Positions 4,900 through 11,202 of a DNA stretch of 64,000 bases are shown piece after piece. Source of the DNA: Bacteroidota bacterium (GTDB taxonomy: Bacteria > Bacteroidota > Rhodothermia > Rhodothermales > JAHQVL01); assembly GCA_039111535.1 (NCBI GenBank), contig JBCCIM010000008.1:2984-66983 (forward strand), read 5' to 3'. The notes below the pieces were generated by a model that was given only the letters and a program-made list of their open reading frames with translations, did not search any database and had not been told where the DNA came from. The position numbers and the translations under genes are program-made. The number at the start of each line of letters is the position of its first letter. Position 1 is the stretch's first letter.

Positions 4900-6732
4900 T
4901 TATTGCAGCACTACATCAAAGGTAACGCTACGATTCAGTGCGCGCTGGGCTTCTGAAGTCTCTGTGCCCGGTATAAGTTGATCGCCCTCACCAACGGCAG
5001 AAAACAAGCCGGCCGGCATGCCTCGGGCAACAAGGGCATCCCGTACGATACGAGCACGTGCGGCACTCAAGAGGGCATTGGTGTTTGGATTTCCTTCAGC
5101 ACTGGTATACCCTCTCAACAATACAGCAAGCTGCTGATTACGCGCAGCGCTAATCGTCTGAAGTGTTTCCAGCGCATCATAGACGCTATCGATCTGCTGT
5201 AATTCTGCGCTGTTTAACACGGCAGACCCTTGGCCAAACTGTACAGTTGCTGCTTCTATGGCTTCAATTGCTGCCTGGAGATCTGCATCAAGTGTGGACA
5301 CCACGCGGCTGTCGTCATATCCCGAGAATCCAAGGATAAAGGGAGATTTTTCTCTTGCGTTTTCAATCCATGAATTGGTGGCCGTCCCTGCGACATATAA
5401 TGTATCTTTCTCCAACATGAACGCAATAGACTCGGGCGCCCTCAGTTGGTTTGTAGCGCGCTTTATAATAATCAATGAATCAAGTGCCAGATAAGACTCC
5501 CACATACCGACAACCCTGTCCTGGGGAAAAGCAGATGGCAACAAAGAATCTGGATGCACCGCCATCGGGTCTTTGAGTCCTTCAACAATAAATTGCCCTT
5601 TTTCCCACGACGTCTGGGTGACAACAAGTCCCGGTTCATTGCGCAATGTTTCGAGGTACTCGTTCCAAAGCAGGTAATTGCGAAACCCCCATATCAACCA
5701 CACTGAAAGCAGCAACAGCAGCACGCCGGCGACGAACCAGAGTCGGTATGGGTTGCGGTCTTTGCGTTTATACTTTTCCAGCAAGCCGGCACGCATCAGG
5801 GGCAGCACGGGGGTCAATTGCTCTGTATCTCCCTCAAAATCATCGAGCAAGTGTCCATATTGCAAATGGATTGCTTCAATGATTTCTTTGAGCGTCAGAT
5901 TCAAATCACCCGCAGGAATGCCACGTACTACAGCTGCAAGCACAGCGTCCGGCCCCGGCTCCATCAATACTGTCAGTTCGCCAATCTTAATCGTTTCGAG
6001 AACATCCTCCCGTTCAGCACCCAGTGAATCCCGCACAAAATCCTGGATCGCACTCAACATACTCGAAACCAGGTCACTGTCTTTTACATCAACAGTTTCA
6101 GCAAAAAGGTGTTGTATCAGGATGCCACTTCGCTTGTCAATAAGGAAAAGCTGCTCAACTCGGTAATTTAGCGTATGCGCTAGCATTACCTCAGAGAACG
6201 ATCGCCCCGACCGTGCAGCTTCCATGCGCCACTTGAAGCTCTGAAACGACAGGCTATGCTCCATGGTGCGGTTCATGGAATCGATAACAGAGCGGAGTGC
6301 TTCCGCAATACTGCGTCGAATTGCAGGGCCAATTACGGGGAAAATAGCATCAGCAAACGGCTTTGGGTCGCGCCGTATGGAGATGCGAAGGGTCTCCTCT
6401 ATTGTAGGACCAAGTGCATTGGCCAATTGGGCGTTATCCTTGTTATGATAGGCAATAGCTCCAGGGAGCACCCGGCCCATTGCATCCACCTGTCCTTCTT
6501 CTTCAAACTGGGCAACAGAACTGAGGCGCTGCTGCAGGCCTTCAATTTGTTTGCCTTCACTCCCGATCAGCAGTCGACGTAGCTCATCCATGTCGCGGTC
6601 ACGGCTCTGTGTCCGATCTGGCTCACTTGCACGCTGCCCATTGGGCTGTGCTCCATTAGCCGGCGCTTCATGGTCAGAAGCAGCGGAAGTATCATCCGCA
6701 TTGGTGGGGTTATTTGAAGAATCTTCAGTCAT
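4900..6732 (-). CDS. trans-envelope OmpA/MotB-family protein: cytoplasmic helical region + longin-like domain, one TM helix, periplasmic region ending in an OmpA-like peptidoglycan-binding domain
   Basis: 610 aa; GGAGGT SD before ATG; TM LWFVAGVLLLLLSVWLIWGF (aa 331-350); C-terminal OmpA motifs VQFGQGSA, LRGYTSAEG, LSAARARIVRDAL, NRSVTF. Confidence 0.88.
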   Translation of the reverse strand: MTEDSSNNPTNADDTSAASDHEAPANGAQPNGQRASEPDRTQSRDRDMDELRRLLIGSEGKQIEGLQQRLSSVAQFEEEGQVDAMGRVLPGAIAYHNKDNAQLANALGPTIEETLRISIRRDPKPFADAIFPVIGPAIRRSIAEALRSVIDSMNRTMEHSLSFQSFKWRMEAARSGRSFSEVMLAHTLNYRVEQLFLIDKRSGILIQHLFAETVDVKDSDLVSSMLSAIQDFVRDSLGAEREDVLETIKIGELTVLMEPGPDAVLAAVVRGIPAGDLNLTLKEIIEAIHLQYGHLLDDFEGDTEQLTPVLPLMRAGLLEKYKRKDRNPYRLWFVAGVLLLLLSVWLIWGFRNYLLWNEYLETLRNEPGLVVTQTSWEKGQFIVEGLKDPMAVHPDSLLPSAFPQDRVVGMWESYLALDSLIIIKRATNQLRAPESIAFMLEKDTLYVAGTATNSWIENAREKSPFILGFSGYDDSRVVSTLDADLQAAIEAIEAATVQFGQGSAVLNSAELQQIDSVYDALETLQTISAARNQQLAVLLRGYTSAEGNPNTNALLSAARARIVRDALVARGMPAGLFSAVGEGDQLIPGTETSEAQRALNRSVTFDVVLQ

Positions 6733-6792
6733 GCTACCTCCTATTATAGCGCAACAAACGCTAAGGAGCTATGATAACGGCACACTAGCGCC

Positions 6793-7383
6793 TTATTCTG
6801 CTGCGCCGTTGGGCGCAATTTCATTTGCGAGACTGGTCAGCATGTCAGCAAACTTGCCGCGATACAGCGCACTTTGCTCCAGCTTCAATAGTGCCTGACG
6901 TAATTCCTCAGATAGGTCCTGCATATTTTCCTGCAGGTTTTGCTCAATTTCAGCGCGTTCTTCTTTCATTGCATTTTTGAACGCGGTATCCACGCTATCG
7001 AGGCGAGATTCCTGTACGGCCTTAAAGGCATCCATCGTTTCGCTCACTTTACCCAGCTCCTTTTTAAGAGCGTCTCGCTGGTTTTCGCGGTTATTGGTCT
7101 CTTTGCCCAATAATTCGAGCATTTCATCAAACTGCGCTTTAAACCGTTCTTCCATTGCCTCCAGTTGCCCGCCCACATCTGTACGGAGGGTATCGAGTGT
7201 TTTGGCCACTCTGCCTTCGAGCGCATGCATACGCTCCTCATATACTTTTATCTGTTCGCCAAAAAGTATACTGCGGACTTTTTCGAGTTCACCCATGTGC
7301 GTGTTGGTCGTTTCTCCGGGGTCTTCTTGAATGACAGTTGACAGCTCAGATTCGTCTGTCGGCTTACCGTTATTTGTAGCCAT
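6793..7383 (-). CDS. coiled-coil protein, co-oriented with the OmpA-family gene
   Basis: 196 aa, E/K/L/A/Q-rich heptad pattern across most of its length; 60-bp gap to the OmpA gene. Confidence 0.85.
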   Translation of the reverse strand: MATNNGKPTDESELSTVIQEDPGETTNTHMGELEKVRSILFGEQIKVYEERMHALEGRVAKTLDTLRTDVGGQLEAMEERFKAQFDEMLELLGKETNNRENQRDALKKELGKVSETMDAFKAVQESRLDSVDTAFKNAMKEERAEIEQNLQENMQDLSEELRQALLKLEQSALYRGKFADMLTSLANEIAPNGAAE

Positions 7384-7884: not shown

Positions 7885-8379
7885 ATGAAGAAGAAAATTT
7901 GTATGCTGGGCACGTTTGCAGTGGGCAAAACAAGTCTGGTACGTCGTTATGTACAGGGGATATTCTCTGACAAATACCTGACAACTATGGGTGCCAAGGT
8001 CGACAAAAAAATTGTCGATTTTGAGGGTAAAAGCATCAATTTGATGCTCTGGGACCTGAATGGCGAGGACCGATTCCAGGGATTATCGATGAACTACGTC
8101 CGGGGAACTGCCGGCTACCTGCTCGTCATCGACAGCACGCGCCGCTCTTCTTTCGAAGCAGCGCATTTACTGCAGCAAAAAGTTGAGCAAGAGTTGGGTC
8201 CCCTGCCTTTCATCGTTGTTTTCAACAAGACGGATTTGAAGACCCCATGGGAGAATCAGGACCGTGAAATACGCCAGCTTGAAGAAAGTGGCTGGACAAT
8301 CATGTACACCAGTGCCAAAACGGGCACGGGAGTTGAAGAGGTCTTCGAAACCCTCACACAAATGATTATGAACGCGTAG
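7885..8379 (+). CDS. Rab/Ras-like small GTPase (prokaryotic Rup type), single domain
   Basis: 164 aa with G1 GTFAVGKT, G2 YLTT, G3 WDLNGE, G4 NKTD, G5 TSAK; no C-terminal Cys lipidation tail. Confidence 0.93.
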   Translation: MKKKICMLGTFAVGKTSLVRRYVQGIFSDKYLTTMGAKVDKKIVDFEGKSINLMLWDLNGEDRFQGLSMNYVRGTAGYLLVIDSTRRSSFEAAHLLQQKVEQELGPLPFIVVFNKTDLKTPWENQDREIRQLEESGWTIMYTSAKTGTGVEEVFETLTQMIMNA

Positions 8380-8500
8380 TTTTTTGGTTTCTCCTTGCAA
8401 ACACACTTAGCAGGTATTTCGGTCGCCCAGGTATTAGCGACCAAACGCCCTTTCAATATGCAGGACTGAAACCATTGAATTGAAACCTGCGGTAAATACC

Positions 8501-9637
8501 ATGTCAGCCATCCTTGCCAGGTTATTCTCCGATCTTGATATAGCTGTACTGGAGCGAGCCAAGGATGGTACGTTCAGCATGCTAAGCGGCACGCCGCCGT
8601 GGCTCAAAAACCTCTGGCCGGCCACCGAATCCAGCTCTGAAGGACTCAACCCTGGCGATGTTTTTTATTTCCTGGAAGACTTCCTCGACCGTAACGAAGA
8701 TTTTTGGCGTGCACCTACCAATGACCGCCGTGCGTCGGGTGTTTGGACGGAAAACACGCCCGACGGAAAAGAACAACTGCTCGAAGCAACGGCCATCTAT
8801 ATTGAAGATACCCCGCTGTTGCTCATCAGAATACCCCATCACCAGCAAGTCTGGCCCATTTTCCAGCAAGCACGCGAGCAACGCCTCGAATATGAGCAGT
8901 TGATTGACGAAATCAACAAGCGCGAAGTGCTACTGCACTGTATTGTACACGACTTGTCGAATCCGCTTGCAAGCATTAAAGGCAGCCTGAACCTGCTGCA
9001 GTCGGAGGATATGGTGGAGTCAGACGGGGACGAACTCTTGAGCATTGGCCTGCGCCAGGCGGCAAAAATGCAAAACCTGATCCGCAGCATTCTAACAACT
9101 TTTGCAAACGAAGTGCGTCCGCTTGTCCCGACACTTATTGGTACAGACATCGCACCTGACCTGCGTTCTTGTGCACAAGAAGTCGTAAAATCGCTCCAGG
9201 CTACGGCCAGTCTCAAAGGCATTCAGGTACAACTTACCGACACCACAGCCACCTCACCATTCAAAGTAGTGGGTGAGGCAGAGCGACTCGAACGTGTGCT
9301 ATACAATTTGCTTGCAAACGCTATCCGTCATTCAGCCAACGGTCAAACCGTATCTGTTGACGTTTTTGATGACGGCGAATTTATCCACGCTAATGTAACG
9401 GACCAGGGCGCCGGCGTCCCCGAAGATCTGATTGAAGGGTTATTCGACAGGTTCTCTCAGGGAAAAGACAAAACAGGGCAAGTTGGACTGGGCCTCTATT
9501 TCTGCAAAATTACCATTGAAGGCTGGGGCGGGACGATCGGATATGCACATGGCGAATCTGGCGGTGCCCGGTTCTGGTTTCGGCTTCCGAAGCCTGTCGA
9601 GCACGAAGACACAACGCCTGAAATCCAACATACCTGA
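8501..9637 (+). CDS. cytoplasmic sensor histidine kinase (N-terminal PAS-like domain, HisKA, HATPase)
   Basis: H-box VHDLSNPL, N-box NLLANAIRHS, DQGAG, LFDRF, GLGLYF; no TM segment. ATG at 8501 preferred over TTG at 8480. Confidence 0.92.
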   Translation: MSAILARLFSDLDIAVLERAKDGTFSMLSGTPPWLKNLWPATESSSEGLNPGDVFYFLEDFLDRNEDFWRAPTNDRRASGVWTENTPDGKEQLLEATAIYIEDTPLLLIRIPHHQQVWPIFQQAREQRLEYEQLIDEINKREVLLHCIVHDLSNPLASIKGSLNLLQSEDMVESDGDELLSIGLRQAAKMQNLIRSILTTFANEVRPLVPTLIGTDIAPDLRSCAQEVVKSLQATASLKGIQVQLTDTTATSPFKVVGEAERLERVLYNLLANAIRHSANGQTVSVDVFDDGEFIHANVTDQGAGVPEDLIEGLFDRFSQGKDKTGQVGLGLYFCKITIEGWGGTIGYAHGESGGARFWFRLPKPVEHEDTTPEIQHT

Positions 9638-9720: not shown

Positions 9721-11202
9721 ATGTCATTTCGCATTTTCATCGTTGACGACGACCCTGAATACAGCGCCCTGCTGCAGTTTCAACTGCGGAAAATTGAGCA
9801 GGTCGAAATCAAAACCTTTAGCCAGGGTGAAGAGGTCGTTGACTGCCTGGACCAACAGCCGCATCTCGTGCTGCTTGACCTGGTTATGCCGGGGCAAGGT
9901 GGCCTCGAAACCCTGCGCCAAATCAAATTGGCTGCACCAAAGTTGCCCGTCATTGTGGTTTCGTCCCAATCAGTAGTTAGCGTTGCACTTGAGGCGCTTA
10001 AACTTGGCGCCTACGATTACATTACCAAAGGCCACGACGACACAGTCAAAATTAACCGGCTTGCGGCTCAAATCGCTGAACGGACCAAACTCACCCAGGA
10101 AGTTAGCATGTTACGCGAACAGCTTCGCGTGCCACAAGGCATTCCTGGCATGATTGGAGAAAGCGTCAGCATGGGCAAAGTATTCAGGCTCATTAACAAG
10201 ACGCTTGTTGGTGACCTCTCTGTGGCTATTGTTGGGGAAAGCGGAACGGGTAAAGAACTGGTTGCCCATACCATCCACTATAATTCTTCCAGGAAACGCC
10301 AGGCTTTTGTTGTTGTCAACTGCGCGGCAATCCCGCGGGAGTTGATGGAGAGTGAATTCTTCGGCCACGAAAAAGGCTCATTCACCGGCGCCTATACGCG
10401 TAAAACGGGTAAATTTGAGCAGGCCAACCAGGGTACCATCTTTCTCGACGAAATTGGAGAATTGAATCTTGACCTGCAGGCAAAACTGCTGCGCGTGCTG
10501 CAAAACCAGGAAGTTCAACGTGTAGGCAGCAATGAAACCATACGGGTAGATGTGCGCGTCGTTTGTGCTACCAACCGTGACATCGTATCGATGATTCACG
10601 AAGGCAAATTCAGGGAAGACTTGTATTACCGACTCTTTCAGTTCCCGATCAACCTGCCCCCGCTACGCGAACGCGACCAGGACAACCTCTTGCTGGCCAG
10701 CTTTTTCAGAAATGACTTCCTGAAACGCCACAAAGACGTGCAGCCCCGCGAGTTTTCTGCTGCCAGCCGGCGCAAAATCCTTGAATACGCGTGGCCAGGG
10801 AATGTAAGACAGCTTAAAAATGCTGTAGAACGCGCCCTGCTCATTTCCGACACGGATGAAATAATCCCTGATGACCTGATGCTGGACGCCATACTGCTTA
10901 CCAAGCGTCCAACTGCAGCATCTCCCCACCCCGCTGTAGCAGCTTCAGATGTACAGATGGCAGGCGGTGGGCATGCAAACGGTAGCGGTGTTGCTGGTAA
11001 CCCTATTGGCACAATCCAGACGGTAACCGACCCCAAAGACATCATGCCGCTTGAAGACCTGAAACGCATGGCTGTTTTACAAGCGTACAAGCTTTGCAAA
11101 GGCAACGTAGACCAGACTTCGCTCCGGCTTGGTGTAACCCGGTCTACTATCTACCGATTGTTAGAGAAATACAAACAGGAAGGCGTAGAGCTCGAAACCT
11201 GA
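9721..11202 (+). CDS. sigma-54-dependent response regulator (REC-AAA+-Fis HTH, NtrC family)
   Basis: IVDDD / LLDLVMP receiver, Walker A GESGTGKE, GSFTGA loop, FLDEIGE, DLYYRL, C-terminal LGVTRSTIYRLL. Confidence 0.95.
   Translation: MSFRIFIVDDDPEYSALLQFQLRKIEQVEIKTFSQGEEVVDCLDQQPHLVLLDLVMPGQGGLETLRQIKLAAPKLPVIVVSSQSVVSVALEALKLGAYDYITKGHDDTVKINRLAAQIAERTKLTQEVSMLREQLRVPQGIPGMIGESVSMGKVFRLINKTLVGDLSVAIVGESGTGKELVAHTIHYNSSRKRQAFVVVNCAAIPRELMESEFFGHEKGSFTGAYTRKTGKFEQANQGTIFLDEIGELNLDLQAKLLRVLQNQEVQRVGSNETIRVDVRVVCATNRDIVSMIHEGKFREDLYYRLFQFPINLPPLRERDQDNLLLASFFRNDFLKRHKDVQPREFSAASRRKILEYAWPGNVRQLKNAVERALLISDTDEIIPDDLMLDAILLTKRPTAASPHPAVAASDVQMAGGGHANGSGVAGNPIGTIQTVTDPKDIMPLEDLKRMAVLQAYKLCKGNVDQTSLRLGVTRSTIYRLLEKYKQEGVELET

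Follow-up and report, generated by a model that had tools for sequence, protein, structure and literature searches.

A predicted longin-like domain in the membrane-anchored OmpA-family partner of a bacterial Group 1 Rup GTPase

The window analyzed here (the whole stretch of 64,000 nucleotides, positions 2,984 to 66,983 of contig JBCCIM010000008.1, assembly GCA_039111535.1) derives from a Bacteroidota bacterium of the Rhodothermales and encodes an OmpA-family protein whose cytoplasmic part is predicted to contain a domain of the longin type, close to the gene of a Ras-like small GTPase. This protein, read from an open reading frame (ORF) on the reverse strand (4900..6732) and its translation, is a bitopic inner-membrane protein of 610 residues and consists, in order, of an acidic disordered N-terminus, a conserved helical region, the longin-like domain, a transmembrane (TM) helix, a periplasmic linker and an OmpA-like peptidoglycan-binding domain. 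The last of these, a periplasmic OmpA/MotB-like domain (residues 499-600; 4933..5238, reverse strand; PF00691, E = 7e-11), was the only part recognized when the entire protein was scanned against Pfam and NCBIfam, and no Pfam family matched outside it at E <= 1. A search of PDB sequences with a full-length profile returned OmpA-type matches to Rv0899, Pal, YfiB and MotB, the best of which was Rv0899, a protein with BON and OmpA-like domains. The single TM helix was located by a hydropathy scan at residues 330-351 (5680..5745, reverse strand; Kyte-Doolittle maximum of 2.3 at residues 331-349). It is preceded by the K/R-rich stretch EKYKRKDRNPYR, with a K/R count of 4 before the helix versus 1 after it, and this bias of positive charge towards the N-terminal side places the first ~330 residues in the cytoplasm and the OmpA domain in the periplasm. 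The longin-like α/β domain covers residues 188-314 (5791..6171, reverse strand), as delimited by AlphaFold2 (AF2) models and supported by Foldseek and conserved motifs; the initial annotation had located it at residues 191-318 of the 610-residue ORF, which map exactly to 5779-6162.

Directly upstream of the OmpA-family gene, and co-directional with it, lies the gene of a 196-residue coiled-coil partner (6793..7383, reverse strand), assigned from its ORF, from Pfam matches that are weak and of coiled-coil type only, and by comparison with PMC4316618. Transcribed divergently from this pair is a 164-residue small GTPase of the Ras superfamily and of Group 1 Rup (7885..8379, forward strand; PF00071, E = 2e-32; TIGR00231), with the motifs GTFAVGKT, WDLNGE (G3), NKTD and TSAK. 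The G1, G4 and G5 motifs are canonical and G3 is without the catalytic glutamine, so that external regulators are needed. A histidine kinase output module (8480..9637, forward strand; HisKA and HATPase_c) is succeeded by a 493-residue ORF (9721..11202, forward strand) that is read as a σ54-dependent response regulator because its equivalent at another locus (L005) contains Response_reg, Sigma54_activat and HTH_8; by analogy, it is likely to be the transcriptional output. The first 150 residues of the kinase (8480-8930), for which no Pfam match was found, are conserved across 46 systems, the conserved residues being P39, W41, F68, W76, S86, G87, Q129 and R132. Of these 46 N-domains, 93% keep Q129 and 98% keep R132, and judging from the alignment both are candidates for the catalytic residues acting in trans that were proposed in PMC4316618.

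This arrangement has been described before (Wuichet & Søgaard-Andersen, 2014; PMC4316618). In that work, Group 1 Rup proteins were defined as Ras-like GTPases with no G3 glutamine that group with Rab, Ras, Rho and Ran, and their neighbours were a coiled-coil protein, a protein made up of a domain, a TM helix and OmpA, and an output module. The output module was either a histidine kinase or GGDEF/EAL, with an invariant N-domain glutamine proposed as the residue of a GTPase-activating protein (GAP) acting in trans, and the cytoplasmic domain of the OmpA protein was labelled 'Unc', its function being unknown. Every one of these elements is matched in the window; the gene system is therefore already known, and the locus belongs to the Group 1 Rup system, which has been catalogued but is uncharacterized. 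No later description of the partner domain as longin or roadblock was found in the literature searched, although subscription-only papers and database annotations could hold one, and the longin-type fold modelled for this core domain appears to be new.

The fold was predicted with AF2 in two runs, one of residues 89-340 with an alignment of full-length homologues [predicted local distance difference test (pLDDT) 74.7] and one of residues 178-330 with a domain-only alignment [pLDDT 78.5, predicted template modelling score (pTM) 0.74, strands at 83-93]; within each run all five models score alike. Both runs gave β1 at residues 188-199 (LNYRVEQLFLID), β2 at 205-210, α1 at 219-236 (SDLVSSMLSAIQDFVRDS), β3 at 247-250, β4 at 253-259, β5 at 263-271, α2 at 275-297 and α3 at 303-314 (TEQLTPVLPLMR), corresponding to E11-22, E28-33, H42-59, E70-73, E76-82, E86-94, H98-120 and H126-137 in the numbering of the domain model. 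The predicted order, β-β-α-β-β-β-α-α, is that of longin domains. In the domain model, a short helix before β1 has a pLDDT of <50, and two confident C-terminal helices follow the sheet. The secondary-structure elements listed in the initial annotation were reproduced by AF2 with the exception of 'LLDDFEGD', which does not form a separate helix: its LLD closes α2 and a loop follows.

Foldseek searches of both models were run against 350,542 PDB chains and the top 50 matches were inspected, all 50 of which were longin or roadblock proteins for either model. The longin matches included ζ-COP (E = 4e-5), the σ and μ N-domains of AP-1/2/3/4, Sec22b, Bet5 and Trs23 of TRAPP, Mon1-Ccz1, Nprl2/3 of GATOR1 and Fuzzy/Inturned; the roadblock matches included MglB, MglC, LAMTOR, dynein LC7 and Asgard Roadblock, with MglB, MglC and LAMTOR at a Foldseek probability of 1.0. 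No GAF, PAS or profilin entry occurred in the top 50 of either model. This AlphaFold and Foldseek check had been set beforehand as the refutation test of the proposed longin/roadblock fold, and neither GAF/PAS nor any other fold was seen. With the domain-only model, the best superposition was that on Sec22b [template modelling score (TM-score) of 0.64 normalized on the query and 0.75 on the target, root-mean-square deviation 3.1 Å, 129 columns], and the corresponding scores were 0.59/0.63 for AP-2 σ and 0.59/0.55 for the first longin domain of Mon1-Ccz1. Those of roadblock proteins were lower (0.46-0.49/0.51-0.55 for MglB and 0.42/0.51 for Asgard Roadblock), and longin domains thus fit the predicted model better than roadblock domains. 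With high probability, as far as these models indicate, residues ~188-314 form an autonomous cytoplasmic domain with the longin fold, the longin permutation of the longin/roadblock superfold.

The segment is strongly conserved, to a degree that on sequence evidence is far beyond chance. A word-indexed search with residues 100-340 returned >3281 homologues, mostly of ~580-620 residues with OmpA, and the identity over this region is ~45-50% across phyla. A profile of the domain only, built from an alignment (A2) of 71 sequences from named genomes, retrieved 5803 representative clusters at E <= 1e-3 and 1584 at E <= 1e-30 from a library of 1.84 billion proteins. The conserved motifs are YRVEQ-FLI in β1, D-D-VSGMLTAIQDFV-DSF in α1 and E-GP-A in the β4/β5 turn, together with RG at the end of β5, IH in α2 and F-GD. 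The most conserved of these is the single helix α1, the element that contributes to the GTPase-binding face in known roadblock and longin dimers.

Three tandem copies of the domain (residues 669-801, 1168-1305 and 1674-1809) were observed in a Lys/Glu-rich protein of 2171 residues (P0122; L124:8001-14516), in which they have the same boundaries and are interspersed with helical repeats and CARDB-like segments. The contig is read as archaeal because the neighbouring genes encode Alba, ribosomal L13e and a tRNA-intron endonuclease. The occurrence of three tandem copies in this unrelated protein implies that the segment is an autonomous module, and that the domain family is confined neither to bacteria nor to the TM/OmpA architecture.

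Linkage to the GTPase was assessed in 83 domain-bearing loci, 80 of them from 588 confirmed genome hits, which were compared with flanks of ±6 kb. A homologue of the Rup GTPase lies within the flanks in 73 of the 83 loci, a coiled-coil homologue in 64 and a kinase-type N-domain in 50. Loci with the GTPase are found in Rhodothermales, Acidobacteriota, Cyanobacteria, Desulfobacterota, Planctomycetota, Binatia, Armatimonadota and Gammaproteobacteria, and several of those without it are truncated contigs. The genes of an Acidobacteriota locus (L003) form an operon with overlapping stops; Rhodothermales have the GTPase-kinase unit in divergent orientation, and so does the window. The genome from which the window derives encodes exactly two proteins with the domain and two strong Ras-family GTPases, which are adjacent pairwise, and a genome-wide profile search detected no canonical Robl_LC7 (PF03259) above the cut-off in its 6.6 Mb. 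The two Rup GTPases are therefore without an MglB-type partner; among 121 genomes sampled from the phylum, only 12 have a Robl_LC7 gene. Genetically, the domain protein goes together with a Ras-like GTPase that lacks the glutamine and with a two-component output, and the placement in the initial annotation of a membrane-tethered domain beside a Ras/Rab-like GTPase agrees with the TM helix, the PF00071 match and this linkage.

A second, paralogous copy of the system is located elsewhere in this genome (contig C13; L123:3712-8060), with its pair arranged as in the window. It encodes a protein of 619 residues in which the longin-like domain recurs (YRVEQVFLIH...VSSMLTAIQDFVQDSF) and a divergent 179-residue Ras-like GTPase with WDLNGE, the end of whose gene is overlapped by the start of a histidine kinase gene. 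No coiled-coil ORF of >=140 residues was found there between the gene of the 619-residue protein and that of the GTPase.

The remaining parts of the OmpA-family protein also show features of their own. Its cytoplasmic helical region (residues 89-187; 6172..6468, reverse strand), delimited by the alignment consensus with its invariant columns and by AF2, was modelled as helices at a pLDDT of 57-80 and carries the motif P-ADA-FPVIGPAIR; it is without a Pfam or NCBIfam match. It is conserved at least as strongly as the longin-like domain, with A129, P132, P136, R139, N154, W168 and R169 invariant, and could lie close to the membrane or bind a partner. An acidic disordered tail and then a similar helix start both the coiled-coil and the OmpA-family proteins in their translations (6523-7287; LRRLLIGSEGKQIE and VRSILFGEQIKVYE), and this resemblance may represent a shared docking or oligomerization motif. 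Longer homologues of ~880-960 residues (P0137, P0161, P0192, P0188 and P0264) contain at least one BON domain between the TM helix and OmpA; BON was not detected in residues 352-490 of the window protein.

Small GTPases and roadblock/longin platforms are central to membrane traffic and nutrient signalling in eukaryotes, and to our knowledge MglA-MglB is the sole established bacterial example of such a pairing. By analogy with MglB-MglA, Ragulator-Rags, and Mon1-Ccz1, TRAPP and Fuzzy-Inturned with Rabs, the modelled domain is proposed to be a membrane-anchored docking or regulatory domain of the GTPase, a reading to which a probability of about 60% is given. The TM helix and the periplasmic OmpA-like domain would hold the longin-like domain at the inner membrane, and the domain would serve as the platform of the adjacent Rup GTPase, probably as a dimer, as in all of the characterized longin/roadblock-GTPase complexes known to us. 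It would recruit the GTPase to this envelope-anchored site and set its nucleotide state. Direct binding of the GTPase by the domain is fairly probable. A role in recruitment or of the GEF (guanine nucleotide exchange factor) type would be favoured, given that the N-domain of the kinase holds the candidate GAP residue; exchange activity itself is a tentative suggestion, possible and somewhat unlikely. The kinase N-domain with its conserved glutamine would act as an effector or GAP and would relay the signal to the σ54 activator; we infer this direction of signalling, from GTPase through kinase to activator. The envelope anchor suggests that the state of the cell wall or envelope may be the input.

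Several points weigh against this platform role. The fold is a prediction and the structure is unsolved; the alignment diversity is low (an effective sequence number, Neff, of ~3), and in the domain-only model the pLDDT is only moderate or low (56-75) for helix α1 and for the loop between α1 and β3. Association with the GTPase is seen here as gene linkage, three loci (L013, L024 and L027) have full flanks and yet no GTPase nearby, and no small GTPase is adjacent to the archaeal three-copy protein. At the level of sequence, no longin family gave a significant Pfam or NCBIfam profile match, and alignment of the domain family with 18 Robl_LC7 proteins of the same phylum by hhalign gave a probability of 2.6% (P = 0.017). 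These results do not establish common ancestry with longin and roadblock domains, and convergence could account for the profilin-like sandwich.

The other sequence comparisons agree with these results. Robl_LC7 (PF03259) did not match the window protein at E <= 1, and searching the PDB with the domain profile by hmmsearch yielded noise only, with no longin or roadblock match. In the hhalign comparison with Robl_LC7 the topologies are in register from β1 to α2 but the alignment is non-significant, on which grounds membership in Roadblock at the sequence level is rejected. When the members of two alignments (71 + 67 sequences) were scanned individually against Pfam, sub-threshold matches to related families appeared in 11 of 138: six to Fuz_longin_1, which was the commonest sub-threshold family in the second set (67 sequences), three to Intu_longin_1 and two to Robl_LC7 (E ~ 0.07, 2/71 members). 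The best was to Fuz_longin_1 (E ~ 0.01, 16.5 bits versus a cut-off of 26.1), with Intu_longin_1 at E = 0.042, and in two examples the matches are collinear from α1 to α2. The scanned members are non-independent and every one of these scores is under its cut-off; a chance origin of three related families among ~25 noise families of 24,736 is nevertheless unlikely, and the recurrent matches are a hint of homology rather than proof. The short sequence patterns that the initial annotation had regarded as diagnostic of longin find no support, and because no longin or roadblock family is significant by sequence, the longin assignment rests on the predicted structure.

Among other explanations, the one that survives best is that the domain is a module for dimerization or scaffolding that binds either the coiled-coil protein or the N-domain of the kinase and makes no direct contact with the GTPase. 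Some longin domains, those of the SNAREs Sec22b and Ykt6 among them, function independently of GTPases; the coiled-coil gene lies directly next to that of the OmpA-family protein in the same direction and is kept in 64/83 loci; and the archaeal protein with three copies lacks an adjacent GTPase. This scaffold function is nonetheless unlikely, as no gene is linked as constantly as that of the GTPase (73/83 loci), domain and GTPase copies pair one-to-one in the window genome, and no other GTPase regulator is recognizable in the cassette by the Pfam scan or the genome search for Robl_LC7.

A little less probable still is a role like that of MglB, in which a roadblock-type GAP would position the catalytic residues of Rup and switch the GTPase off at the envelope. 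Roadblock GAPs are the classical partners of bacterial small GTPases (PMC4316618), MglB, MglC, LAMTOR and Asgard Roadblock are among the Foldseek matches, and both the sub-threshold Robl_LC7 matches and the in-register hhalign alignment point the same way. Set against these are the longin permutation of the model and roadblock TM-scores that fall below those of longin, as well as the fact that MglB orients the intrinsic glutamine and arginine of MglA (PMC4316618), whereas Rup is without a catalytic glutamine of its own and the candidate glutamine acting in trans is located in the kinase N-domain. The longin-like domain does carry a conserved glutamine itself, Q194 in YRVEQ, which could conceivably be catalytic.

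Longin, roadblock, GAF and PAS domains share a broad α/β sandwich architecture, and GAF and PAS structures are abundant in the PDB. A GAF/PAS-like sensor of the wider profilin-like fold that binds a cytoplasmic small molecule, for which the PAS-like fold of longin domains pointed out in PMC3521125 might speak, is very improbable given the absence of GAF and PAS from the top 50 Foldseek matches of both models and of any Pfam GAF/PAS signal even below threshold. Least probable of all is an artefact of modelling, with a segment that is merely conserved and of undefined or different structure: the moderate alignment depth (Neff ~3), the mean pLDDT of 75-78 and the weaker α1 are outweighed by the agreement of two AF2 runs with differing inputs, the uniformity of the five models in each, the pTM and strand pLDDT values and Foldseek matches that all belong to one superfold. 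The sensor and no-domain readings were both dropped on the Foldseek lists.

A membrane-anchored platform for the GTPase is thus the preferred interpretation. It assigns a predicted longin-type fold to a membrane-anchored protein that is universally conserved as the partner of Rup1, a GTPase whose regulators were missing. A signalling system that occurs in thousands of bacterial lineages thereby gains a concrete candidate for its missing GEF or platform, and a physical connection of the Rup1 system to the peptidoglycan layer is made as well. The usual view is that longin domains are an elaboration, in eukaryotes or Asgard archaea, of the archaeal roadblock domain (PMC3521125, PMC10933270), and the present domain is a data point for the debate on the origin of the Rab-longin partnership. 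True homology to the first of the longin domains in Rab GEFs of the tri-longin type (Mon1/Ccz1, Fuzzy/Inturned and HPS1/4), together with a function as the Rup1 GEF, is quite doubtful. Were it so, the pair of a Ras/Rab-type GTPase and a longin GEF would already have been a unit in bacteria, and eukaryotes could have gained this pair with a Rup1-like ancestor of Rab, Ras, Rho and Ran, rather than longins from an archaeal roadblock domain.

Comparison with known systems places the locus closest to home among the Group 1 Rup systems, with which it shares the GTPase without the glutamine, the coiled-coil protein, the protein with domain, TM helix and OmpA, and the kinase with a glutamine-bearing N-domain. 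It differs in that the cytoplasmic domain left unassigned in PMC4316618 is here predicted to be longin-like, and in that the GTPase-kinase unit of Rhodothermales is divergent from the coiled-coil/OmpA unit, whereas the genes are operonic elsewhere. The likeness to the anchors MotB, Pal and Rv0899 lies in the C-terminal domain, with its matches to PF00691 and to many OmpA-like domains of solved structure, and the combination of BON and OmpA in Rv0899 recurs in the longer homologues of the window protein. MotB is bitopic with its N-terminus inside, a topology like that of the window protein; a conserved cytoplasmic signalling part of ~330 residues is present here, in contrast to the short plug or stator helix of the anchors.

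MglB, a bacterial GAP and reported GEF of MglA, and other Roadblock/LC7 proteins share with the predicted domain the superfold and the location of the gene beside a bacterial small GTPase. MglB is soluble with MglA as its partner, whereas the present domain is membrane-anchored with a Rup GTPase as its partner; moreover, the helix order is permuted, with C-terminal helices in place of a confident N-terminal helix, a PF03259 match is lacking and the TM-scores are lower. Longin domains have been derived from archaeal or MglB-type roadblock domains via circular permutation (PMC3521125), and roadblock/longin proteins have been considered to originate in archaea and to occur sporadically in bacteria (PMC10933270). 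The eukaryotic longin domains (Sec22b, AP σ/μ-N, ζ-COP, TRAPP, Mon1-Ccz1 and Fuzzy-Inturned) differ from the bacterial domain, which has no significant sequence similarity to them and occurs in fusion with a TM helix and a domain that binds peptidoglycan. They nevertheless resemble it in the β-β-α-β-β-β-α-α order of the model, in giving the best superpositions (TM-scores of up to 0.75) and the sub-threshold Fuz_longin_1 and Intu_longin_1 matches, and in their association with a Ras/Rab-like GTPase, which is made here by gene linkage.

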